DNA of 64,000 nucleotides from a virus (taxonomy: Duplodnaviria > Heunggongvirae > Uroviricota > Caudoviricetes): IMG/VR virus record IMGVR_UViG_2740892442_000004, one strand, 5' to 3'. Of the stretch, positions 6,954 to 59,188 are shown piece by piece; positions within the stretch are counted from its first letter, which is position 1, and the number at the start of each line of letters is the position of its first letter. A model generated the notes under the pieces. It was not told where the DNA came from. It did not search any database and was given only the letters and a program-made list of their open reading frames with translations. Position numbers and translations under genes: made by a program.

Positions 6954-8276
6954 ATGGAAAAACTGATCGCCCTAAAGCACAAGCTGGATGCCATAAAAAC
7001 GATGGGAACCAACGCCAAAAAAGAGGCGCTGGCCAACCTTGATGAATTTGAGCAGAGCATGGTCTCGCTAATGCTCAACCCATTCATTCGATTCGGTGTG
7101 AAGAAGTACAAAGTGGTCGAGCCACTCGATACTTCCGTACCCATCGACCAGAAGGTAGTCGAGCTGCTGGAGAAGCTGGCGGCGCGCGAACTGACCGGGA
7201 ACGCGGCCATTACTGCTGTTGAGTCTATCGTGGCGTCAATGTGCGCCGATGGGCAGGACGTGTTCCGTCGTTTCCTCTTAAAAGACCCGAAAGCGGGTGT
7301 TGGGATTAGCCTATGCAACAAGGTTTTTGAAAATCCCATTCCGAAATTCGAGGTGCAGCTGGCGTCACCGTATAAAGAAAAAGGCGACAAATACCCCTTC
7401 AAGCCAAACCCTAAAGCAAAATGGCCTATGATTGGCAGCCTTAAGCTCGATGGTTTGCGAGTAATTTGCGAGGTTATTGTTGACGAAGAAGAGGTTAACT
7501 TCCTTTCTCGTACTGGTAATCCAATCACGTCTCTCGATCACCTAAAGCCAGCCATGCTCGAATTAGGCAAACTTTCAGGCCACAAACACATCTTCTTCGA
7601 TGGTGAAGGAACTGCCGGTTCATTTAACCAGTCCGTATCTGCATTGCGCAAAAAGAACGTGCAGGCAATTGGCGCTATTTATCATGTTTTCGACTTCTTC
7701 CTACCGGAATGGCGGGCACAGGCTAAATCCAAAGAGTATGCAAAGACAGGTATGAAGCTGAAAGAGCGCCTGGCTATTCTCGTGGCGTTGTTCAAAAACG
7801 ATCGCAGTGAAGGCTACACACAAGACATTCACCTGCATCCGTTCTATATCATCCATAGCCACGAAGACTTCATCGAACGCTTCATGAAACGCCTGGACGA
7901 TAACGAAGAAGGGGAGATGGGCAAAGATCCGAACTCTGTTTACGAGTTTAAACGTACCCGCAGCTGGTGGAAGTTAAAAGACGAAGATTCAGAAGATGGT
8001 GAAATTATCGACTTTGAGCCGGGCGACCCGGACTCTGGTTTTGCCAACACGCTTGGAAAAATTGTTATTCGCCTTGAAAACGGTGTGATTGTTCGTGCGA
8101 GCGGCATTAAGCATAAATATCTGGACGAGATCTGGAACAACAAAGAGAAGTACCGTGGTCGTATTGTCGAGGTTCATTGTCACGAGAAAACGCCGGATGG
8201 CAGCTTACGCCACCCACGACTGAAATGGCCTCGTTGCTTACGCGATACCGAAGATCGAATCGGAGATAAAGAATGA
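6954..8276 (+). CDS. ATP-dependent DNA ligase
   Basis: Nucleotidyltransferase motif I SLKLDGLR, motif III FFDGE, motif V WWKLK, LRHPR motif VI-like. Confidence 0.7.
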   Translation: MEKLIALKHKLDAIKTMGTNAKKEALANLDEFEQSMVSLMLNPFIRFGVKKYKVVEPLDTSVPIDQKVVELLEKLAARELTGNAAITAVESIVASMCADGQDVFRRFLLKDPKAGVGISLCNKVFENPIPKFEVQLASPYKEKGDKYPFKPNPKAKWPMIGSLKLDGLRVICEVIVDEEEVNFLSRTGNPITSLDHLKPAMLELGKLSGHKHIFFDGEGTAGSFNQSVSALRKKNVQAIGAIYHVFDFFLPEWRAQAKSKEYAKTGMKLKERLAILVALFKNDRSEGYTQDIHLHPFYIIHSHEDFIERFMKRLDDNEEGEMGKDPNSVYEFKRTRSWWKLKDEDSEDGEIIDFEPGDPDSGFANTLGKIVIRLENGVIVRASGIKHKYLDEIWNNKEKYRGRIVEVHCHEKTPDGSLRHPRLKWPRCLRDTEDRIGDKE

Positions 8277-8488
8277 TCGTATTAAGTAAACGGGAGAAGG
8301 AAACGCTTCATGAAATCAGTAAGTGGCCGGAGTTCCCTGAGTACTGGAAGCCTAAAACGCGAGCTAAGTTAGAGCGTTTAGGGTTGGTTGCAAACGTTTC
8401 TGAAACGTGGTGTTCGGCCAACTACCAGTTAACTGATAAAGGGAAAGTATTGCTACAGCAATTAGTAGAATCAGGAGCGTTAAAATGA
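8273..8488 (+). CDS. hypothetical small protein
   Basis: 71 aa ORF with ATGA overlap to ligase stop. Confidence 0.4.
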   Translation: MIVLSKREKETLHEISKWPEFPEYWKPKTRAKLERLGLVANVSETWCSANYQLTDKGKVLLQQLVESGALK

Positions 8489-8637
8489 TTCCATACATCT
8501 CATTAGCTTTTATGGGTGGCTTCCTTATCGGCTTCGGCATCTGTCGTGATTTAATTAAGCAGGAACTTAAAACCAAAACACTGTGCATCGGAAAGCGTGT
8601 GTATCGGGTAGTTCATGAAACAAAGGTTAGAAAATGA
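8485..8637 (+). CDS. small membrane protein (50 aa)
   Basis: AGGAG Shine-Dalgarno before ATG; hydrophobic MIPYISLAFMGGFLIGFGI; overlaps neighbours by ATGA. Confidence 0.35.
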   Translation: MIPYISLAFMGGFLIGFGICRDLIKQELKTKTLCIGKRVYRVVHETKVRK

Positions 8638-8924
8638 GCAATTTAACTTCTTGGGACTGGTGGTTGGCCACCTATTTCTTAGCGGCCGGAGTCGCATTCG
8701 CCTTTTACGTAGGTCAGTTAGTCGTAAAACTGTTGCTGATTAAATTTGCTAGTCATAAACGTATCGATGATGGTCTGTGGCGTCTTGGCACCCTGGTGGA
8801 AACTCGCTACGGGCAACTTAAGGAGAACGAAACCATTACTATCCAGGCGAAACGATTCACTGCCACCATCACAAGAACACCTAGTCGTAGAGTGGCCTTG
8901 ATCAAAAAAGTCACAACCGAATAA
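8634..8924 (+). CDS. hypothetical membrane protein
   Basis: N-terminal hydrophobic helix WDWWLATYFLAAGVAFAFYV. Confidence 0.45.
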   Translation: MSNLTSWDWWLATYFLAAGVAFAFYVGQLVVKLLLIKFASHKRIDDGLWRLGTLVETRYGQLKENETITIQAKRFTATITRTPSRRVALIKKVTTE

Positions 8925-9702
8925 AAACATCACGATAAGTATTTACTTACTTATCTTTTATGTATAAGATGACTTTGTTTTCGTTGAGACGCGACTGTTT
9001 GAACTTAAATACAAGTGCAAACGAAGAAGTCTATCTGGCAGTAGCCTAATAAGCCAAACACCAGCGAGGTCAGTTTCCAGCCTCGTTACCGAAATGGGAC
9101 ACACTGAGCGAGTGTGATTGCAGAACGCAGGAGGGAACATGAGTGTTCCCTCCGATGAAGTAACAGAATGGGCGGTTGGTATATTTTCAACTCCATATGA
9201 CTCCCGGATTCTTAGCCACTGACCGCCCATCCTGTTACGTCATTTTGTTCAATTATGTCGTTTATACTGGGTTAAAAAGCGGCGACGTAGCCCGGCTGGT
9301 ATGGTTAGCCAGCACACAACGTTGAGGCCATTACATTTTTATCAATTCTAAGGTTCTATTCACAGAGATACCGGCGAGCGTTGATATGTAACATGTTGGG
9401 CAAACATTCAATCGGAGTAGTGGCCTCAACGTTGTGAAGACGGGATTGTTGTGTAGGTTTAACCACTGTTGCCATTGGTGCCTGTTTTCACAACAAATGA
9501 TTCCATACATCACATTGTATAAATTACAAAGTAGGTGCTGTCCTCAGAAACATCATCTACTTAAAGATTTTGCCTTCTACTATTGAGCGAAGTCGAAAGC
9601 GTCTGGCACTAACGAAAAGTGCAAGTAGCGGTGCGTTTCCTGGCAGAAACTAAACCGTCGCGATTGGCACTGTTGAGTAATAAATACTGGCAGTGCTGAA
9701 TT

Positions 9703-25156: not shown

Positions 25157-25172
25157 TCCCATTACGTGACCA

Positions 25173-25201
25173 GTAAGGCGTCTACGGACGCCTTACTTTT
25201 T
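25173..25201 (+). terminator. Rho-independent terminator
   Basis: gtaaggcgtctacggacgccttac followed by ttttt. Confidence 0.65.
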
Positions 25202-25216
25202 GGAAGGAATGTACCG

Positions 25217-26160
25217 GTGAATTATCTCTTCGTAGATGGCAATAGCTGGGTTATTACCATCAACAATCTGACAAATTGCACAACGGCGAAATGGAAGTAC
25301 AGGCTGCTTTCGGCTTTGTTAAGAACGTCCGTCGTTATGCCTCCATCCTCCATGCCCGACCTATGATTCTTTGGGATGGATTTAGTGACAAGCGTCGCGA
25401 CTTTTACCCGGACTACAAAGCAAATCGCGACGACGATCCTGATATGAAAAAGATGAAGGAAGGCTTTGCTATCCAGAAGCCATACATCCTCAAAATGATG
25501 ACCGCGCTTGGAGTTACCCAACTCATTGCAAAAGATGCAGAAGCGGATGATCTGGCCGGGCTGCTGGTATCCCGCATGGCACCGCAGCCAACCGTTGAAC
25601 ACATCTATCTGTTAACAGGCGATAGCGACTGGCTTCAGTTAGTTCGTGAAAACGTAAGCTGGGTAAGCCTGCGTGAAGACGCCAAAAACAAGCAGGTTAA
25701 TTTTGAGCAATTTGCGGAGCTGACAGGATTCGCCACGCCTCGCGCATTTTTGGAAGCAAAAGCATTACAAGGAGATAACTCGGACAACATTAGCGGTGTT
25801 GGTGGCATTGGTGCTGGCGGTGCGAAAGAGCTGCTGCATGAATGGGGAAGTGTCGCAACGATGGTACGCGGCATCAACGACGGCTCAATCGTGGTTAATA
25901 AAGGGCGTCATAAGACCGCCTTCAACAAACTAGCGAAGAATGCCTTCAACGAGAAAACAGGCTGTCGAATGCTCGAAGCGTTCAAGAGAAACATCACGCT
26001 AATGAACCTGATTGAGACGAAGTTTCCGCCTACCGAAATCGAAACAATCAAAGGCAATCGTGACGTGAAAGCATTCGAGCAACTGTGCTACGAGCTGAAT
26101 TTCCGTTCGTTCCTTGAAGACCTTGAAGTGTTTGTTCTTCCATTCGAAAGGTATTGCTAA
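25217..26160 (+). CDS. 5'-3' exonuclease / flap endonuclease, apparent frameshift near 25245-25280
   Basis: N-terminal VNYLFVDGNSW in one frame; remainder (AEADDL, GDNSDNISGVGGIG H3TH) in another. Confidence 0.6.
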
Positions 26161-26426
26161 TGCTTAAATCGATTATCAATGGCGCTACAACCACCCCTGC
26201 CCAACTGGCAAAAGAGATTGTCTTTTATCACGGTGAGTACGCTGTCATCGCACTGCCGTCAATTCTAGGCGCTGCCGGAATGAAAGCGACAGATCGCGAG
26301 TTTGGATTAGTCAGCGAGCAGGTCGTAAAAATCCTCGCTCGTGTATCCAGACTCCTTAACCACGATGCGATTGTATTCGATGAATCCGCCGCTTTAAAAC
26401 GAATCAACGAAACAAAAGGAGCCTGA
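26160..26426 (+). CDS. hypothetical protein
   Basis: ORF overlapping FEN stop. Confidence 0.4.
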   Translation: MLKSIINGATTTPAQLAKEIVFYHGEYAVIALPSILGAAGMKATDREFGLVSEQVVKILARVSRLLNHDAIVFDESAALKRINETKGA

Positions 26427-26428
26427 TC

Positions 26429-27502
26429 ATGGCAAAAGGAAAATCCGCACTGGCACTTGCTCTGAAAAAGAAAATCGGTAGCAACGACGAAATTCAGAAA
26501 GTAACTCATTGGATTGATACAGGCTTTCCACCGTTAAACAAAGCTATTTCTGGTCGTTACGATGGCGGCTTCCCATGTGGTCGTATCGTCGAAGTATTCG
26601 GTCCTCCAAGTGCAGGGAAAACGTTCCTTGCAACAGCAGCGATGATCTCCGCTCAAAAACAAGATGGTCTGGCGGTATTCCTCGATCATGAAAACAGTTT
26701 TGACGTTGGCCTGGCTGTCGCCAATGGCCTGAACGCAGATGAGGATGACGGTCAGTGGGTATACAAGCAGCCAGATACCTTCGAAGACTCTGTAGAGTTG
26801 ATCGGCACAATACTTAAATTGGTTCGTGATGAAGAGCTTATCCCCGAATCAGCACCAATCTGTATCGTGGCTGACTCTCTTGCGTCTATGGTTCCGAACT
26901 CCAAAGCCGAGAAGTTCGAAAAGATGGCTGAAGGCACTGCCAAAGACAAAGATCAGCTAAACATGAACGACAATACGGCACTGGCTCGTGCGACGAGTGC
27001 GAACTTCCCTACTCTGGCTTTGTGGGCACGCAAATACAACGCCTGCATCATCTTCTTGAATCAGGTTCGCACAAAAATCGGTGTAATGTTTGGCGACCCT
27101 ACTACGTCGCCAGGTGGAGATTCACCGAAGTTCTACGCTTCTGTACGTATCCGTCTTGGTGCATCGGTGATGAAGGATGGTAAAGAGAAGATCGGCCAGG
27201 ACGTAGGCGCAGAATGCATCAAAAACAAAGTTGCACCACCGTATGGCAAATGCACCTGGAAATTCTACTTCGATCCTACTCGTGGCCTCGACGTTATCGA
27301 ATCGCTCGTCGAGTACATGCTGGAAGAAGGATACCTGCCAAAGAACGCCAGCGGGCGAGTTGAAATTGGTGACAAGAAATACACCAAATCGCAGATCGTC
27401 GAGATGTATCGGGAGAAGCCACTGGCTGAAATCATTGCGGCTTTGCAGGCAATCGACGACCGAAGAGCAAAAGACAACCCCACCGAGTCAGTAGAAGAGT
27501 AA
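26429..27502 (+). CDS. RecA/UvsX-like recombinase
   Basis: Walker A GPPSAGKT; RecA-fold core; 357 aa. Confidence 0.7.
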   Translation: MAKGKSALALALKKKIGSNDEIQKVTHWIDTGFPPLNKAISGRYDGGFPCGRIVEVFGPPSAGKTFLATAAMISAQKQDGLAVFLDHENSFDVGLAVANGLNADEDDGQWVYKQPDTFEDSVELIGTILKLVRDEELIPESAPICIVADSLASMVPNSKAEKFEKMAEGTAKDKDQLNMNDNTALARATSANFPTLALWARKYNACIIFLNQVRTKIGVMFGDPTTSPGGDSPKFYASVRIRLGASVMKDGKEKIGQDVGAECIKNKVAPPYGKCTWKFYFDPTRGLDVIESLVEYMLEEGYLPKNASGRVEIGDKKYTKSQIVEMYREKPLAEIIAALQAIDDRRAKDNPTESVEE

Positions 27503-29691: not shown

Positions 29692-30027
29692 ATGAAGGCC
29701 ATCCCATTCGCGCTGTTGTTCCTTTCTTCGATCGTTGTGGCCGACACCACTGTTTATCAGTGTGAAATGTCTGTAGCCGACGTTAAGAATGGCGCTCTTA
29801 CCGACGTCATAAAAGCACCATATGGAGCGATGGTCGTAGACAGCGGCGACCAGTTCTATGTTGTGCGTGACGATCGAGTGTTGTCATCCCCATATCTCAC
29901 AAATCGTAATGGCAAATTAACCGGCGTCGGAGAAGACCACTTCGTATACAACAAATACAAGGGCTTCTATGGTGTTCACGCTTCTCAGCAAAGCTACCTT
30001 TTCGATGACTGCAAGGAGGTTGGATAA
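29692..30027 (+). CDS. hypothetical secreted protein
   Basis: Signal-peptide-like N-terminus MKAIPFALLFLSSIVVA. Confidence 0.45.
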   Translation: MKAIPFALLFLSSIVVADTTVYQCEMSVADVKNGALTDVIKAPYGAMVVDSGDQFYVVRDDRVLSSPYLTNRNGKLTGVGEDHFVYNKYKGFYGVHASQQSYLFDDCKEVG

Positions 30028-30224
30028 TGGCATTAACACTGGCAGGTCTGGAAATCGAGAAAACAAGCGGCTACTGGCGTGCTAAGGGTTTCAAGCAGCC
30101 TGGCATTCTTGAGCGTCTGGAACGTGAAGATGGGTATATCGTCCACCAGCGGCGTGAATGGCGTATGTACGATCCAGAAACAGGAAAACTGACTACAAAA
30201 GCCGGAACACTTTGGGTCTGTTAA
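30027..30224 (+). CDS. hypothetical small protein
   Basis: 65 aa ORF overlapping upstream stop. Confidence 0.35.
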   Translation: MALTLAGLEIEKTSGYWRAKGFKQPGILERLEREDGYIVHQRREWRMYDPETGKLTTKAGTLWVC

Positions 30225-30284
30225 AGAAAATACACTAAATGCAAACTGACTGCGGCACGTTCCGCAGTCATATTTCATAGTCGT

Positions 30285-30695
30285 CACCGCTGACAGCATA
30301 CACAATCAACTACCGCTGATAGCATATCGAGAGTCTATCTCACCGCTCACAGCATACTTTACTCGATTTTTTACCGCTGACAGCATACTTAAGACATTGC
30401 ATGAATAATGTGTACCGGTATGGGTATAACCAGAACAAAATTACCGCTGGCAGCATACGAAGGTCTGACATATACCATTAATTACCGCTGATAGCATATC
30501 CAAACTGGAATGCACTCTTCGAGGTTAGTAACCACTGGGGAGGTATGACAGAGCATTGAGTGGTGATAGATGATTTACCGCCCACAGCATACGTTCATCT
30601 CACTATACCGCTGGTAGCATATATTTAACCGTTTACAGCATACTTTTCAGAAAAATAGCCGCTGATAGCATACATTTCACCGCTGACAGCATATC
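30285..30695. repeat. Iteron array, about 11 copies (consensus ACCGCTGACAGCATAC), downstream of repA
   Basis: Degenerate direct repeats at irregular 20-70 bp spacing. Confidence 0.75.
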
Positions 30696-31788
30696 AAAGC
30701 AGTTTGAGACTATTGGAAAGGATCTCAATCATCTTGATATTTTCAGGCGTCAAATTCTGCGAAAGTTCGGTTATCTTGTTGATAATGTTCTGTTTGGCAT
30801 CAATTTCCCCAGCTTTCTCATCTAGTTTTTTGGGTTCGATGTCTTCAGGTTTTGGCGGTGCGACTTTGAGTTTTGGATTGCGGCTGTGAATCTGGATATA
30901 GATCGACCGCCCTCGCTTAATCTCGCTGTATTCGAGATAACCCAAATCTTGGAGAGCTTTTAAGCCGTTGCGTATAGTCTGATTCTGCGAGCTGACATTC
31001 CTGCTACTCAAATTGAGTCGCGCACGCAATCGAGCAAGCGATACCGGCGCAGGCTTGGTTGGAAGACTTTCGATGAAGGTGTACAGAGCCTGTGCTGTTT
31101 CTTTGCGTGGTAGCTTATTGATAACCTTTAACTGCAAAAGAACCTTATGGTCAAAGCGATATAGTTCGGCCAGCTTCGGTTCTGCATAGAACACCACCGT
31201 ATCTTTCTGCTCGTTGTAGTCCACGCTATTGATGAGGTGCACCATCAGAAGCGAGATCTTGTTAGAGCCGTCGACGTTCTTTTCTTCATACGTTCTCTGG
31301 AAAGACAGAGTTGTACGCATGATCTTCAAAAGACTGTTTGTAAGCCGGTCGCGGAGTGTTTTGCGGATCTGTGACGATGGATAGCCACAAAACTTCGCAA
31401 ATTTCGTGATGCTTAACTCGACACGACCGTTAGGTTCGCCGTATTCTGCCAGCGAACGCACAACGCCCACCCACGTTTTGAAATCATGATCCATGTCGAG
31501 ACGAGGACCGGTTATCTTGATATCGGAATAGCCTTCAGAACGGGCTACTTCGAGCTGAACAAGCTCCTTTGAAGCATCGATCTCATTTGGCTTGTTACGC
31601 TTGCTGTATTTTGTCCCCTTGAGCGTGGGCACGAACAATCCCAGCCGCATCAACGCAATTGGTTGGACTGTATTGTTGCTATTAGGGACAAGTTCCCCTG
31701 TGTACAATTCAAGGGAACCTTCTTCAAAGTTGTCGAGATTATCTTCTACTTCTTTGTTATTTTTACCTTTTTTATTTTTTGTGGACAT
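30694..31788 (-). CDS. repA: Replication initiator RepA-like protein
   Basis: Gene bracketed by iteron arrays; start set at MSTKNKK (AAGG Shine-Dalgarno) because ORF N-terminal extension to 31908 overlaps upstream iterons. Confidence 0.6.
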   Translation of the reverse strand: MSTKNKKGKNNKEVEDNLDNFEEGSLELYTGELVPNSNNTVQPIALMRLGLFVPTLKGTKYSKRNKPNEIDASKELVQLEVARSEGYSDIKITGPRLDMDHDFKTWVGVVRSLAEYGEPNGRVELSITKFAKFCGYPSSQIRKTLRDRLTNSLLKIMRTTLSFQRTYEEKNVDGSNKISLLMVHLINSVDYNEQKDTVVFYAEPKLAELYRFDHKVLLQLKVINKLPRKETAQALYTFIESLPTKPAPVSLARLRARLNLSSRNVSSQNQTIRNGLKALQDLGYLEYSEIKRGRSIYIQIHSRNPKLKVAPPKPEDIEPKKLDEKAGEIDAKQNIINKITELSQNLTPENIKMIEILSNSLKLL

Positions 31789-31807
31789 GTGGACACCTTT
31801 GTCATTC

Positions 31808-31910
31808 AACCGCTGACAGCATACTTGATTTGCCGCTGACAGAATACCAAAAACAGTTGGCAGCATACGGTGAACCGCTGACAGACTATCAATTACCGCT
31901 GACAGCATAC
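31808..31910. repeat. Iteron array, 4-5 copies, upstream of repA (origin-proximal)
   Basis: aaccgctgacagcatac, gccgctgacagaatacc, accgctgacagactatc, taccgctgacagcatac. Confidence 0.7.
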
Positions 31911-31950
31911 ATGAACATGGCTTCAGACCAGTCGTGGCGCGGCTTACAGC

Positions 31951-32023
31951 GATCGGGGATCTTATTTGATCTATACAAGGATCTATCTATGGATCTCTTT
32001 ATTAGGATCTATCCTGTGGATAT
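31951..32023. promoter_or_regulatory. Origin-like region: six GATC sites plus DnaA-box-like site
   Basis: GATC at 31951, 31958, 31968, 31980, 31992, 32006; tgtggatat at 32015-32023 is 8/9 to TTATCCACA on reverse strand. Confidence 0.5.
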
Positions 32024-32109
32024 GTGAATAATTAAAACAGGCATTTACTACCTTCGGCGCACCTGGTGGGTTATCGTTGCCTCGGCTAACAATCACAGAA
32101 AAATGACAT

Positions 32110-32754
32110 ATGGATCTAAAACGCACGCGCTGGGTTCGTCGTCTTGAAGACGGCTCCTACACTATCGAATCAAATTCCAACCTGAATAAGCAGAAGTTGC
32201 TTTGTGACATCTGCGGTATAGCGGCGAAGTGCCCGATCTACGAAACCAGAATTAAACTTGATAAGGCTGGTGTGAATTTTCATTTAAACAGTTGCATCAG
32301 GTACGTTCCATTACTCGCATTTCGTAAACCGATCATCGGATTGGATGCTCCCTACTTCAACACACTCCGTTCAGGTGTGACGTGGCGAGATCGTTTATCA
32401 CCAGACAAGCTGATTTGCCTCGTATCCGCAGACACAGGGAAAATCATCCGTTTTGGGAAAGTAGACAAGGTTTACTCAGGCCCAGTAGACGAAATGTTGC
32501 GGAAACACAGCCGGTTTAATCATCTCTGTATGGGTGGTGAGAAAATCGAGAAGGTAGAAGAAGTGATCCGCAAATCCTACGGACACTTTCTGACCAAAGA
32601 TAGCCTGCTCACCGCAATCTACATCAGACATGTAAAACGTGAGTTCGACCTCGAATACCACAGCGAAGAAGAGCTTAACCTTGTTGACCCACGTCCAAAA
32701 GCTGGCGTCATAAGCATAAACGCAGCGCGTAAAAAGCCCACTGACGCGCTGTAA
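32110..32754 (+). CDS. hypothetical protein
   Basis: 214 aa ORF next to origin. Confidence 0.45.
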   Translation: MDLKRTRWVRRLEDGSYTIESNSNLNKQKLLCDICGIAAKCPIYETRIKLDKAGVNFHLNSCIRYVPLLAFRKPIIGLDAPYFNTLRSGVTWRDRLSPDKLICLVSADTGKIIRFGKVDKVYSGPVDEMLRKHSRFNHLCMGGEKIEKVEEVIRKSYGHFLTKDSLLTAIYIRHVKREFDLEYHSEEELNLVDPRPKAGVISINAARKKPTDAL

Positions 32755-47139: not shown

Positions 47140-47733
47140 ATGATTGCAGCCGAAAAAATCAAACAGCGAAAGCGCGACAACTCTCTTCGTGACCTCTGGA
47201 GAACACCTGACTGGCTGTTTTCTGCCATTCAACGTTATCTTGGAGTGACATTTGATGTTGACGTTGCCTGCAACAAGGACAATGCAAAGCTGCCTAATTT
47301 CATAGGCGTTGAGCGTGATGCTTTGAAATCTGAATGGGGACAGCCAGGTACAATTGCCTTCCTCAATCCACCCTACTCCAAAATCTCCCCCTGGATTGAT
47401 GCGGCTATACGTGAGCAGGCTCGCGGAGTTACAACAGTGATGCTAATTCCTCAATCCCTAGATACAAAGTGGTATGAGCGTGCAACAGAGTGTGCGAATG
47501 AGACGATTATTCTGTCTGGTGGCCGCGTAGCGTTTGTCGAGCCTGACGTCAATCTGGGTCAGGTAGAAGTAAACATCAACCCAGGTGGCAGTATGCTCGT
47601 TGTTTTTCGAGGATTCTGTCAGGACGCTGGGCACTCTATAAGCAAGATCCCTTTGGACGTCATGAAAAGTCTGGGAGGGTATGATCCTGCGAATGTGATC
47701 AGGAAAAAAAGACCATCAAAGAAGGCTGCTTAG
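47140..47733 (+). CDS. DNA N6-adenine methyltransferase (phage Dam-like)
   Basis: WRTPDWLF N-terminus and FLNPPYS catalytic motif; 197 aa. Confidence 0.7.
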   Translation: MIAAEKIKQRKRDNSLRDLWRTPDWLFSAIQRYLGVTFDVDVACNKDNAKLPNFIGVERDALKSEWGQPGTIAFLNPPYSKISPWIDAAIREQARGVTTVMLIPQSLDTKWYERATECANETIILSGGRVAFVEPDVNLGQVEVNINPGGSMLVVFRGFCQDAGHSISKIPLDVMKSLGGYDPANVIRKKRPSKKAA

Positions 47734-56781: not shown

Positions 56782-57108
56782 ATGGCCACATCGCATTATG
56801 CAATCACCCAGGAAAAAGTATTTCGCTTGCTCGAACGTCTGGAGGCGCTCGCCACGGAGGAGGATATATCCCCGGAGATGCTGGTTGAGTGCAGCCGTGT
56901 GATATTGCGTCGCAAGAACGACATCGCGCGGTTGACATCTGGCGCACCATCCGTATCAGCCAGTCCAACGCTTTATTGCAGCTTCTGCAACAAATCCCAG
57001 CACGCCGTCAAAAAGTTAATTGCTGGGGACGCCGTTTTTATCTGCGACGAGTGCGTGGATGTGTGCAACAGAATTATCCGGGGAGAGAAAGAGGGATCAG
57101 CACGATGA
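56782..57108 (+). CDS. Small protein with ClpX-type zinc-binding motif
   Basis: C-terminal [37 protein letters not shown] closely parallels the ClpX N-terminal ZBD; four Cys conserved; AGGAG Shine-Dalgarno. Confidence 0.55.
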
Positions 57109-57290
57109 GAAAACTAGAGGTTCGCGCTGAAGACGTAATCCCTGGTGATGTGCTCATAACATCTAAAGGTCAACAATGTGCGGTTAAATCTTTCTGGATG
57201 GACGGTGACAAAGTGACTCTGTTCGGTACGGATGGTTCCGAAACTGATTATGACTACGACGAATTGCTTGTTGTTGAGAGAGCTGCCTAA
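57105..57290 (+). CDS. hypothetical small protein
   Basis: ATGA overlap with upstream stop; 61 aa. Confidence 0.35.
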
Positions 57291-57916
57291 TGACCACGGT
57301 TAACAATAAGAAATGCTACCCAAGCGAGAAATATCTTAATGAGCTGATCACCAACATAGAGTTTGCGGCAAGGGCACCAGTTGAAGTCGTGAGAGCAATG
57401 GCAGCAGAGCTACAGAAGCGGCGCGAAGCTGATAGTGCCGAACCTGCAAGTAATCATGAAGAGTTGCCGCTTGATTATCTCCAAGGTCAAAAAGATGGTC
57501 TTGAATGGGCTGCGCAGCTTGCAGAAGCAAATCACCCACAAACTGGCGACTGGCTTTACGATGACCCGCTGGAGCTGGCTAAAGCTATCAGAAAAGGTCC
57601 TGACATGCCCGAATTCGATGGGCCAACTCCGGTAACTCCGGATGGTTGGATAAGCTGTAGTGAGCAGATGCCTGTAATCGGCGAGCTAAATTGGAGAACT
57701 GGTTTTCCTTTGCTGATTACGTGTGAGATCGGCGTTATACCAGCTTATTACGGCTTTGTGAGCGTTAATGGGGATAAGCATTATGGTTTTATGGAAAGTT
57801 TTAAATACGGAGACGATCGCGGCGGCCATCCTAAAACTAATGAATATGGTCTGATTAGCAATGTCACACACTGGATGCCGCTACCAGAACCTCCGCAGGA
57901 GTCGAAGAGTGAATAA
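57290..57916 (+). CDS. hypothetical protein
   Basis: 208 aa ORF. Confidence 0.45.
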   Translation: MTTVNNKKCYPSEKYLNELITNIEFAARAPVEVVRAMAAELQKRREADSAEPASNHEELPLDYLQGQKDGLEWAAQLAEANHPQTGDWLYDDPLELAKAIRKGPDMPEFDGPTPVTPDGWISCSEQMPVIGELNWRTGFPLLITCEIGVIPAYYGFVSVNGDKHYGFMESFKYGDDRGGHPKTNEYGLISNVTHWMPLPEPPQESKSE

Positions 57917-58130
57917 AGCAGAGTTATTTCAGAAAATATCGGCTCTCGCGACTGAATGCCACGCTATAGCATCTGAGCTTGATGTTGGCGATGAACGAAC
58001 CGAGATGTTCGAAATATACAGTGTGCTGCGCAATCTCTGTCGGCGTGGCTACGCCACTCAAGTAGGGCGAATGACTAACCCACTACTCTCATCCTGTGAT
58101 GAGGATGACTCGGATGAGGATGACGAATGA
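57909..58130 (+). CDS. hypothetical small acidic protein
   Basis: GTG start with AGGAG 6 nt upstream; ORF opens at 57861. Confidence 0.35.
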   Translation: MNKAELFQKISALATECHAIASELDVGDERTEMFEIYSVLRNLCRRGYATQVGRMTNPLLSSCDEDDSDEDDE

Positions 58131-58510
58131 TGCATAAATCAGTAGCCGGTGAGTTTCAGAAGGAAGTCGATAATACCACTGATCTATTGGACGATATTTT
58201 AAGCATTCTCGCGCTGCTTGAGGCTGGCGATTGGTCAGAACATTGCACTAAAACAGAGCTAGGCGGTCGGCTTGAAAGAGAGATTACACGACTGATTAGC
58301 GATGCCCAAAATGATTTGTCACCTGAGCATCTCCCCTGCGATGTAGTTCTTGTGCCAGGGATGAGGATACACGAAGGCGTCAGAACGAAAACATTATTAA
58401 CCGCATTACAGAGAAGAGCCGAACTAAGCTCGCGGATAAAGTTGATGCCATCCAAAATATTTGATGTCGTCAAATTTATGCCATCGCAACATACTGAGAG
58501 AGATAAATGA
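58127..58510 (+). CDS. hypothetical protein
   Basis: 127 aa ORF, ATGA overlap. Confidence 0.4.
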   Translation: MMHKSVAGEFQKEVDNTTDLLDDILSILALLEAGDWSEHCTKTELGGRLEREITRLISDAQNDLSPEHLPCDVVLVPGMRIHEGVRTKTLLTALQRRAELSSRIKLMPSKIFDVVKFMPSQHTERDK

Positions 58511-59133
58511 GCACGGTAGCGAAAGATCTCACAGAAGATATTCTCAATGAAATTATTGCTGGTGCAAATACCTCGCTTGAGCAACTTCTTGCGTTAGCAC
58601 TGAGAGCCGAACGTCGAGACAGAAATCGTTTTTATGAGCGATTACCAGGGAAGCGACCAGATAGATCGGATGAAGAAGGTTGCGATATAGACTACATGGA
58701 GCCTTCAGAGATTTATCAACTTGGTAAAGATGACGGCTGGAACGCTTATCACGATGCTGTGATGAAGTTGGATGAAAAAGTTAAACCTCTTTCTCGACCG
58801 GTAGATCACGGTTTCCGCGATAACTGCGAATGCTCTAGTTGCCAGACCACGGCCCGTATTTGTTCCGAATTGACAGATAAGTCCAGCCTAATCTACGAAG
58901 TTAATGTAGGCGGTAATACATGGGTCGAATGCACAAGAGCTGCATACGTAAGAGCAAAAGACAAGGGTGAATTAACCAGAGTTGTTACCAATCACCCAAA
59001 TAATGAGCTTAAAGATCACCAGATTCGAGAACTGGTGAACGAGTTGAGAGATATTGCGGTTCAGTACCACGGAACGCAGCAATTGCGGGAGAAGATTGCC
59101 AGAGCAGTGAACAACTCAGTCCGTAAAAAATAA
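58507..59133 (+). CDS. hypothetical protein
   Basis: 208 aa ORF. Confidence 0.45.
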   Translation: MSTVAKDLTEDILNEIIAGANTSLEQLLALALRAERRDRNRFYERLPGKRPDRSDEEGCDIDYMEPSEIYQLGKDDGWNAYHDAVMKLDEKVKPLSRPVDHGFRDNCECSSCQTTARICSELTDKSSLIYEVNVGGNTWVECTRAAYVRAKDKGELTRVVTNHPNNELKDHQIRELVNELRDIAVQYHGTQQLREKIARAVNNSVRKK

Positions 59134-59188
59134 GCAATAGTACGATAAAGAGGCCCCATGCTCTTGATGGGGCCTGTAGCAACTAGCG

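Follow-up and report, generated by a model that had tools for sequence, protein, structure and literature searches.

For the plasmid replicon of phage P1, methylation dependence, sequestration by SeqA, handcuffing and activation by DnaK/DnaJ are well established, and the curated GenBank annotation of this replicon, in which incA, repA, incC, the Dam sites and the DnaA site are marked, was used here as the reference. Replicons closer to the one considered below have been described on plasmids of Escherichia coli and Klebsiella. In pEc_K1G_A, an iteron oriV consisting of four 21-bp repeats with gaps of 10, 9 and 5 bp has been placed downstream of repB (PMC13463583), and in Klebsiella IncpKPHS1 plasmids, four iterons were located 48–218 bp downstream of repA and oriV was placed there (PMC6735626). 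Plasmid p47258-4 has been typed as IncFIB(H89-PhagePlasmid) (PMC12838234), and the RepA of pECOH89 has been reported to be 48% identical to that of pLF82/Cyrano (PMC3999498), the same figure that we obtained for the RepA analysed here. The sister element Cyrano/pLF82 has been reported to produce virions and to be maintained at ~5.5 copies per chromosome (PMC9928086).

We analysed a 64-kb stretch of viral DNA (hereafter, the window) and conclude, with a probability of roughly 0.88, that the locus shown in Table 1 is the replicon of the plasmid (lysogenic) state of an SSU5-like E. coli phage-plasmid, that it belongs to the P1 RepA/RepFIB lineage, and that it represents the type named IncFIB(H89-PhagePlasmid) in PlasmidFinder. 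This replicon is already known and catalogued; the finding is correct but ordinary, and the general understanding of how such replicons work is unchanged by it.

Table 1. Features of the replicon and the associated methyltransferase gene, with positions in the window.
Feature	Position	Strand	Basis or remark
Terminator-like hairpin, bidirectional	30247..30270	.	stem of 9 pairs (6 G-C), both strands
Downstream iteron array, 11 copies	30286..30694	- (feature strand)	incA-like locus, proposed
repA, 364-aa iteron-binding initiator (predicted)	30694..31788	-	Pfam Rep3_N and homology with P1 RepA
Two weak DnaA-box-like 9-mers, GTGTCCACA and ATGTCCACA	31780..31796	-	each 7/9; overlap the repA start codon
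Origin iterons, five copies, 21-bp phase, incC-like	31809..31910	- (feature strand)	motif search
Candidate repA promoter	31821..31850	-	TTGGTA (31850-31845), 18 nt, AAGTAT (31826-31821), within the origin iterons
GC-rich spacer between iterons and GATC block	31911..31950	.	40 bp, 57.5% GC
AT-rich block with six GATC sites	31951..32012	.	34% GC; aligns with P1 oriR
Two tandem DnaA boxes, left end of origin	32015..32031	-	aligned to the P1 DnaA site
Dam-family N6-adenine DNA methyltransferase	47140..47733	+	197 aa; Pfam PF05869 Dam, E 2.5e-38

A search of the entire window for the 16-mer ACCGCTGACAGCATAC, with up to three mismatches, identified 16 copies, all on the plus strand and all in two arrays, one downstream and one upstream of repA; shuffled sequences contained 0.40 matches on average and 2 at most. 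The sequence-only reading had described a rep-like minus-strand gene between two arrays of direct repeats, with about 11 copies downstream and 4–5 upstream, and both the motif search and the predicted ORF agree with it, the counts being exactly 11 and 5. Its further description of six GATC sites within 60 bp also held, whereas the single DnaA-box-like site that it also noted is indeed present but proved to be two tandem boxes.

The origin iterons start at 31809, 31832, 31853, 31874 and 31895, that is, with spacings of 23, 21, 21 and 21 bp, compared to 22, 21, 21 and 21 bp in P1 incC. By analogy with P1, we propose that they are the RepA binding sites for both initiation and autorepression. The copies of the downstream array run in the same direction as those of the origin, with spacings of 26, 30, 31, 70, 41, 93, 30, 21, 30 and 21 bp, start to start. 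As in P1, where incA is placed alike relative to repA, the array extends right up to the repA stop codon, which its last copy abuts. This array is proposed, again by analogy, to be an incA-like locus of copy control and incompatibility. Its copy number differs among relatives, with 12 iterons in CP027358 and nine each in PhiR41_1 and Klebsiella pJN2-26. Compared with the 12-iteron array of the IncFIB(H89-PhagePlasmid) replicon, the array in the window has lost 124 bp and with it one iteron, a deletion not seen in any of the records listed, and that of PhiR41_1 lacks 87 bp including three iterons. These natural deletion variants fit the notion that the distal control iterons are dispensable. 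The upstream origin region shows no difference at all in CP027358 and PhiR41_1 (100% identity), whereas the downstream array has suffered deletions.

The repA gene starts with an ATG at 31788 that is preceded, 5 nt upstream, by a Shine-Dalgarno sequence (AGGTG). A profile search of the protein, as proposed in the sequence-only reading, matched Rep3_N (PF01051) at residues 118–239 with E 3.9e-9 and 37.5 bits, against a cutoff of 22.4. In BLASTP, residues 32–309 align with residues 20–284 of the 286-aa RepA of P1 (129 of 278 positions identical, 46%, E 4e-86), in agreement with tblastn, and given this level of identity we consider the assignment to this family settled. Compared with P1 RepA, the protein in the window is extended by ~12 residues at the N terminus, carries an internal insertion of 8 aa, and ends in a C-terminal tail of ~55 aa (residues 310–364) that is missing in P1. 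Rep3_C (WH2) was not matched by Pfam in this protein at E <= 0.01; in the RepA of P1 and SSU5, the match to this domain is weak, just under the cutoff, and the same region aligns well with the RepA of the window. There was no match in NCBIfam and nothing meaningful among PDB sequences (phmmer with RepA, hmmsearch with a profile of five RepA sequences), and a single-sequence AlphaFold2 model (pLDDT 38, pTM 0.26) was too poor for use. We rejected the 404-aa ORF predicted by PGAP (start at 31908) as the true protein: it runs through the iterons, the translation of which accounts for its first 40 residues (MLSAV..LSAV..MLPTV..LSAA), and homology with P1 sets in after the ATG at 31788.

In a sigma-70 scan, no promoter for repA was detected on the minus strand. 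The candidate promoter in Table 1 matches the consensus at 7 of 12 positions, below the threshold of the scan, and aligns with the annotated PrepA of P1 (TTGCTA-N18-TAGGAT), which occupies the same position; judging from this alignment, it may drive repA.

The GATC sites of the AT-rich block, at 31951, 31958, 31968, 31980, 31992 and 32006, span 59 bp, and five of the six lie inside (T/A/G)AGATC(C/A) heptamers. Nowhere else in the window do four or more GATC sites fall within 60 bp, and random placement of its 270 sites produced six clustered sites in 2 of 2000 trials. By analogy with P1, we propose that this block is an opening region sensitive to Dam methylation and SeqA. The adjoining DnaA boxes, TTATTCACA at 32023-32031 and ATATCCACA at 32015-32023, are the only adjacent pair with at most one mismatch in the window; because the number of DnaA-box matches across the window is not above chance, the weight of these boxes lies in their position and their homology with P1. 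The motif CCGCGCCACG.CTGG of the GC-rich spacer is retained in P1, Cronobacter JK004 and pJN2-26. So is the TCCACA core of the two weak DnaA-box-like 9-mers, which lie at the right end of the origin and may be functional. On the other side, the replicon cassette ends on the left at the hairpin, beyond which lies a small convergent ORF (30027..30224). No RNA family was matched between 29900 and 32300 (Rfam, E <= 1), and therefore this region shows no sign of antisense-RNA copy control.

The P1-type architecture recognised in the sequence-only reading thus extends to homology of the parts. The 125-bp origin core, comprising the spacer, the GATC heptamers and the DnaA boxes, is identical to P1 oriR in 98 of 132 alignment columns (74%), with a score of 55.5 compared to -6.1 +/- 4.6 for shuffled sequences, that is, ~13 standard deviations above. 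In both replicons, the order is tandem DnaA boxes, GATC heptamers, GC-rich spacer, five iterons, repA, control array; the five Dam sites annotated in P1 oriR line up base for base with the GATC block, the tandem DnaA boxes align with the annotated 18-nt DnaA site of P1 and in both replicons begin 9 nt past the final GATC, and the first GATC spacings are 7, 10 and 12 here and 7, 10 and 11 in P1. Because RepA (46%) and the non-iteron origin core (74%) are both conserved in sequence and the parts are colinear, the replicon is homologous to that of P1, beyond a shared layout. The two replicons also differ. P1 (IncY) has GATGTGTGCTGGAGGG as its iteron and the window GTATGCTGTCAGCGGT, with only the TRTGCTG half in common; all 16 iterons are direct here, but in P1 incA, six of nine are inverted; there are 11–12 control iterons and six GATC sites here, compared to nine and five, respectively, in P1; and, unlike in P1, no parAB-parS adjoins the replicon. 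Both elements are phage-plasmids and each encodes its own Dam-family methyltransferase, but the backbone here is that of an unrelated SSU5-like siphovirus, whereas P1 is a myovirus.

By analogy with P1, the replicon is expected to replicate autonomously, to exert incompatibility and to depend on methylation. The sequence anatomy, the homology to P1 of both RepA and the origin core, and the confinement of relatives to plasmids are observed, and each biochemical step of the following scheme is proposed by homology with P1. RepA monomers would bind the five phased origin iterons, and host DnaA would bind the tandem boxes, so that the two proteins would jointly open the AT-rich GATC block. This block would fire only when Dam-methylated, and SeqA would sequester it in the hemimethylated state after firing. 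RepA bound to the origin iterons would repress the repA promoter, and the 11 downstream iterons would titrate RepA and pair with the origin iterons (handcuffing); titration and handcuffing together would result in a low copy number and set incompatibility. Lytic replication presumably relies on helicase, primase, DnaE and ligase genes that the element itself carries elsewhere in the window.

The two published placements of oriV would put the origin in the downstream array instead, at the four distal iterons (30286-30388), leaving the upstream copies as merely the repA operator. The layout of four repeats published for pEc_K1G_A does match these iterons, with start-to-start distances of 26, 30 and 31 bp, and origins downstream of rep do exist in some iteron plasmids. 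Nevertheless, we regard this placement as very unlikely. PhiR41_1 is devoid of three of the four distal iterons and the window carries another deletion in the same array; the array is adjoined by no DnaA box (with up to one mismatch), GATC cluster or AT-rich block, whereas the upstream region has all these parts and shares 74% identity with P1 oriR, which has been defined by experiment. Furthermore, both papers used an over-long ORF of 404/405 aa that hides the five upstream iterons in coding sequence. The evidence presented here argues for the upstream array as the origin over the downstream placement.

The sequence-only reading had taken the element for a phage-plasmid that also encodes a Dam-like methyltransferase, and both proposals are supported. 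Nearly identical DNA is present in 143 PLSDB plasmids and in the deposited phage genomes PhiR41_1 (a complete circular phage genome, host MG1655) and CMS-2020a, and in complete genomes it occurs solely on plasmids: the replicon was detected in 120 of 5,426 complete E. coli genomes (~2%), at 185 places, each of them on a plasmid, with no chromosomal copy. The closest complete plasmid, NZ_CP027358.1, is circular (110,001 bp) and encodes capsid, terminase, tape-measure and tail proteins along with this RepA, its sole annotated replication initiator, as well as ParA-like and ParB-domain proteins. Sequence comparison thus supports a common SSU5-like E. coli phage-plasmid (SSU5_pHCM2 group) of ~110 kb, of which the window comprises only the replication and metabolism half. 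The methyltransferase gene is annotated in CP027358 as phage N-6-adenine-methyltransferase, and its product may keep the GATC sites of the origin methylated. The replicon is the same as that of pECOH89, p09EL50 and pEc_K1G_A, all of the IncFIB(H89-PhagePlasmid) type, and over 100 plasmids of ~110 kb from E. coli match the region with 98–99.9% identity. The link to the H89 type plasmid, pECOH89 (HG530657), was made via p47258-4, which is 98.7% identical to the window region, and via the 48% figure cited above.

Since phage-type replication proteins (DnaB-like helicase, primase, DnaE, ligase) are all encoded in the window, the element could in principle be maintained by these from another origin, the replicon being a passenger or relic. 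We consider this highly improbable. Neither the repA ORF nor any of the 16 iterons is disrupted, and they are 98–100% conserved across more than 100 independent plasmids; decayed derivatives in E. albertii, 62–64 kb plasmids in which dnaE is truncated and virion genes are missing from the annotation, retain the replicon at 99% identity; and, in an otherwise 97–99% identical backbone, the ~1.87-kb cassette is not lost but exchanged for another complete RepA/iteron allele.

Although direct-repeat arrays beside maintenance genes may be centromeres and no centromere has been identified for the ParA-like ATPase of this element, the reading of the arrays as partition sites, or as sites for another protein than RepA, is the least credible of all, because the repeats flank repA as the RepA-binding iterons of P1 do, with matching 21-bp phasing and a similar half-motif (TATGCTG here, TGTGCTG in P1), the ParA-like gene is ~30 kb distant, and the iteron sequence changes with the RepA allele, the P1/JK004, SSU5 and window/Klebsiella groups each having their own.

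In the Klebsiella IncpKPHS1/pKpn replicons, such as that of pJN2-26, RepA is 85–87% identical and the iteron sequence is unchanged, the origin likewise has five 21-bp-phased iterons, and the core of DnaA boxes, GATC sites and spacer is the same; their control iterons follow another spacing pattern, and the host genus and backbone lineage are different. The SSU5/pHCM2/pLF82 (Cyrano) allele occupies the same position in the backbone, the flanks of the replicon in the window (on the left side, from ~30240 leftward) being 97–99% identical to phage Cyrano, and agrees in architecture; its RepA belongs to the same family and also has the C-terminal tail, and its DnaA/GATC core is conserved. Its RepA is only 48% identical, however, and its iteron, CCACTGTAGAGAG, is unrelated; in SSU5, the control iterons are inverted as well as direct and the origin module is tandemly duplicated.

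These comparisons invite a broader proposition, namely, that the published downstream oriV is wrong and the true origin is an overlooked upstream module homologous to P1 oriR, that RepA and iterons co-diversify within a discrete ~1.87-kb cassette (46–48% protein identity, unrelated iterons) while the core that serves host factors (DnaA boxes, GATC heptamers, spacer) remains at least 74% conserved, and that the RepA tail of the SSU5 group, together with the all-direct control array, perhaps reflects a variant form of handcuffing; taken jointly, we give these claims an even chance. If they are true, cassette swaps in an identical phage backbone would let related phage-plasmids evade incompatibility and co-reside in a cell. 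IncFIB(H89-PhagePlasmid)/SSU5-like elements are frequent in clinical and animal E. coli and sometimes carry blaCTX-M-15. Correct mapping of the origin and of copy control would aid replicon typing, the design of curing strategies and vectors, and the interpretation of copy-number changes, as well as the prediction of incompatibility, both with elements that share the iteron (the Klebsiella pKPHS1 type) and with those whose iterons differ (the pLF82, SSU5 and P1 types). The analysis also exposes recurrent annotation errors, in which RepB is extended to 404 aa through the iterons, the iterons are labelled attL/attR, or oriV is assigned to the control array.

The replicon has a P1-type architecture, as the sequence-only reading proposed and as is borne out by homology of RepA, conservation of the oriR core and a colinear arrangement of the parts. 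The proposed profile search matches the protein to Pfam Rep3_N (WH1) at 37.5 bits (cutoff 22.4), and RepA shares 46% identity with P1 RepA across residues 20-284 of the 286 in P1 (E 4e-86), which upholds its relation to replication initiators. Identity is 48% to RepA of Salmonella phage SSU5 and of phage Cyrano (pLF82), and 85-87% to RepA of Klebsiella phage-plasmids. Compared with P1 RepA, the protein carries an internal insertion of 8 aa and a ~55-aa C-terminal tail that is common to Klebsiella RepA and, loosely, to SSU5 RepA, and is absent from RepA of P1 and of the Cronobacter relative JK004. A sequence search for a relative of solved structure detected none.

An AGGTG Shine-Dalgarno motif lies 5 nt ahead of the repA ATG at 31788, which is also the start in the record of the phage genome PhiR41_1. 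The 404-aa form called by PGAP was rejected given that it starts at an ATG within the outermost iteron. Such over-long calls, of 404/405 aa and labelled "RepB family", are made by PGAP and other pipelines (30694..31908, minus strand, in the window; 6620-7834 in L001; 1336-2553 in Klebsiella phage pJN2-26, MZ779062); their first 40 residues are translated iterons, and the five origin iterons are hidden in the CDS in >100 database records.

With at most 3 mismatches, the iteron ACCGCTGACAGCATAC occurs 16 times in the 64 kb window, always on the plus strand and within two arrays, whereas dinucleotide-preserving shuffles give a mean of 0.40 matches and never more than 2; an independent repeat finder recovered the same repeat families. 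The predicted bracketing of the rep-like gene by ~11 and 4-5 copies therefore stands, with 11 and 5 counted, and the remaining parts of the sequence-only description likewise proved real and in the places given.

Positions of the replicon features and of the methyltransferase gene in the window
Feature	Position	Strand	Remarks
Downstream iteron array	30286-30694		11 copies
repA	30694..31788	minus	364 aa, between the two iteron arrays; most likely gene form
Two weak DnaA-like boxes, TGTCCACA twice	31780-31796		overlap repA start
Upstream (origin) iteron array	31809-31910		5 copies
Tandem DnaA box ATATCCACA	32015-32023	minus	
Tandem DnaA box TTATTCACA	32023-32031	minus	
Dam-family methyltransferase	47140-47733		PF05869, E 2.5e-38

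Beyond the upstream array, where six GATC sites within 60 bp had been noted, six are found in 59 bp (31951-32009). Nowhere else in the window do four or more GATC fall within 60 bp, and random placement of the window's 270 GATC sites reached six in just 2 of 2000 trials. The DnaA-box-like site reported next to them is present as two tandem boxes; over the window as a whole, DnaA-like 9-mers show no enrichment, so that the value of these boxes lies in their position. The TCCACA of the weak boxes is conserved at the same place in the other aligned origins. By position, TTGGTA-N18-AAGTAT (31850-31821), within the iterons, is a candidate equivalent of the P1 repA promoter, albeit a weak one that a promoter scan did not report.

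When the upstream region is aligned with the curated P1 record, the non-iteron core (31911-32035) is 74% identical to P1 oriR (98 of 132 columns), with an alignment score of 55.5 compared to -6.1 +/- 4.6 for shuffles. The two origins are colinear throughout: in both, the tandem DnaA boxes begin 9 nt past the last GATC, (T/A)AGATCC heptamers recur at near-identical spacing, a GC-rich spacer bears the conserved motif CCGCGCCACG.CTGG, and five origin iterons (spacings 23, 21, 21, 21 in the window and 22, 21, 21, 21 in P1) are followed by repA and a second array with its final copy directly at the stop codon. The iterons themselves differ, GTATGCTGTCAGCGGT in the window and GATGTGTGCTGGAGGG in P1 in the repA sense, with only the TRTGCTG half in common; all 16 are direct in the window, whereas 6 of 9 are inverted in P1 incA, and inverted blocks are present in JK004 and SSU5 too. 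Furthermore, parAB adjoins incA in P1, whereas the likely partition pair of the window element is ~30 kb from the replicon. This pair, a 222-aa ParA/MinD-family ATPase (Pfam MipZ, AAA_31, CbiA) and a 117-aa partner, is encoded at 84257-85284 of NZ_CP027358.1, the closest complete plasmid, just upstream of window position 1, and the 117-aa gene straddles the window start; ParB-domain genes are located elsewhere (7899-9250).

From what is established for iteron plasmids, P1 among them, monomers of RepA would bind the phased origin iterons and, jointly with DnaA bound to the tandem boxes, would melt the AT-rich GATC block. The origin would require Dam methylation and be sequestered while hemimethylated; judging by their titles, papers by Abeles & Austin in 1987 and by Abeles, Brendler & Austin in 1993 reportedly address these properties of the P1 origin. 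Dam sites are annotated in the curated P1 record. The Dam-like methyltransferase proposed at 47140 was recovered as an ORF with a Pfam match, and this Dam-family enzyme of the element itself may keep the origin methylated. RepA is predicted to repress its own promoter inside the iterons, and the downstream iterons would titrate RepA and handcuff origins, resulting in low copy number and incompatibility. Cyrano, the sister element, is maintained at ~5.5 copies per chromosome (PMC9928086).

A different origin placement has been published for pEc_K1G_A, which carries the same replicon: an iteron-type oriV was put at four repeats downstream of repB, with eight downstream repeats counted, in a description that is silent on upstream iterons, GATC sites and DnaA boxes (PMC13463583). 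Several observations speak against this placement: PhiR41_1 has lost part of the four distal repeats, the downstream array lacks host-factor sites, and the upstream module shows homology to P1 oriR, which has been defined by experiment. The same report considers pEc_K1G_A unrelated to P1 and Cyrano devoid of repB-oriV (PMC13463583); the comparison here argues against the latter reading, given that Cyrano carries an alternative replicon allele. For the Klebsiella IncpKPHS1 type, four downstream iterons and no recognisable RepA domain have been described (PMC6735626). Placing the origin upstream of repA would correct a detail and would not amount to a novel type of system.

The window, NZ_CP027358.1 and PhiR41_1 share an identical upstream origin, whereas the downstream array differs among them. 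Downstream and upstream iterons number 12+5 in NZ_CP027358.1, 11+5 in the window, and 9+5 in both PhiR41_1 and pJN2-26. The window lacks 124 bp at 30506/30507, inside the downstream array (one iteron and a ~108 bp spacer), that are present in NZ_CP027358.1, PhiR41_1 and all other E. coli records among the matches listed, which all span 2026 bp compared to 1901 bp in the window; no microhomology was found at the junction. PhiR41_1 lacks 87 bp of this array, including three distal iterons. These natural deletions fit dispensability of the distal control iterons, and a constant origin beside a variable, deletable array is the pattern expected of an incA-like control locus.

In PLSDB, 143 plasmids match the 1.9 kb region, 122 of them at 95-99.9% identity, mostly non-mobilizable E. 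coli plasmids of ~110 kb; the region also matches two phage records, PhiR41_1 and CMS-2020a. Among 5,426 RefSeq complete E. coli genomes, it is found in 120, at 185 places, all plasmid and none chromosomal. The best match (99.9%), the circular 110,001-bp NZ_CP027358.1, encodes major capsid protein, terminase, tape-measure and tail proteins, ParB-domain proteins and a ParA/MinD-family ATPase, with RepA as its only annotated initiator. Of an element of this kind, the window spans the half devoted to replication and nucleotide metabolism. The exclusively plasmid location of the E. coli relatives and the virion genes of the best match support the proposed phage-plasmid. Because one matching record, the plasmid from strain 47258 (110,844 bp), was typed IncFIB(H89-PhagePlasmid) (PMC12838234), and the 48% identity reported between pECOH89 RepA and pLF82/Cyrano RepA (PMC3999498) is the same as for the window RepA, the replicon is the already known and catalogued H89 type, from a known phage-plasmid family, the SSU5_pHCM2 group (PMC7969092). 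For a 779-aa gene at ~25160-27500 of the window (56798-59137 in NZ_CP027358.1), one record gives the annotation LAGLIDADG homing endonuclease and PhiR41_1 gives RecA-like protein, suggesting an intein-containing recombinase.

Compared with Cyrano, the flanks are 97-99% identical, on the left to ~30240 and on the right from ~32108, and the ~1.87 kb between them holds another RepA and other iterons, with a recognisably conserved DnaA/GATC core. From these near-identical flanks around a differing allele, the replicon appears to be an exchangeable cassette with a fixed location. P1-like elements offer a parallel, with either an IncY or a p0111 replicase in the same position (PMC7969092). On the left, a small conserved ORF (30027..30224, plus strand), annotated as Cre-associated protein in SSU5 and P1 Cra protein in Cyrano, has a one-base deletion at ~30214 (TTTGGGG to TTTGGG) relative to NZ_CP027358.1 and PhiR41_1 that alters its C-terminus (65 aa in the window, 70 aa otherwise). 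Immediately outside the origin, a conserved 214-aa ORF (32110..32754, plus strand), annotated in Cyrano as an ASCH RNA-binding domain protein and without a match in a Pfam search, adjoins the replicon in SSU5, Cyrano and Klebsiella relatives regardless of the RepA allele.

The replicon persists, at 99% identity, in seven plasmids of E. albertii (62-64 kb), namely NZ_CP034165.1 (63.8 kb) and six others like it. These decayed derivatives of the phage-plasmid have insertions of IS110 and IS3, a truncated dnaE and acquired hdeAB, and their annotations include no capsid, tail or terminase genes; along with the replicon, they retain the ParA-like ATPase and a toxin-antitoxin pair of RelE/ParE type. 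Retention of the replicon in these decayed plasmids indicates that, with its maintenance genes, it can sustain a plasmid without phage functions.

In SSU5 (JQ965645), the origin module (DnaA box, GATCC repeats, ~5 iterons) is apparently duplicated in tandem (2280-2500 and 2655-2895), with a period of 375 bp and 80% identity in the non-iteron part, and the downstream array mixes direct and inverted iterons. In pJN2-26, the 20-nt "attR" and "attL" features flanking rep (1333-1352 and 2603-2622) are two iteron copies, and these labels are an annotation artefact.
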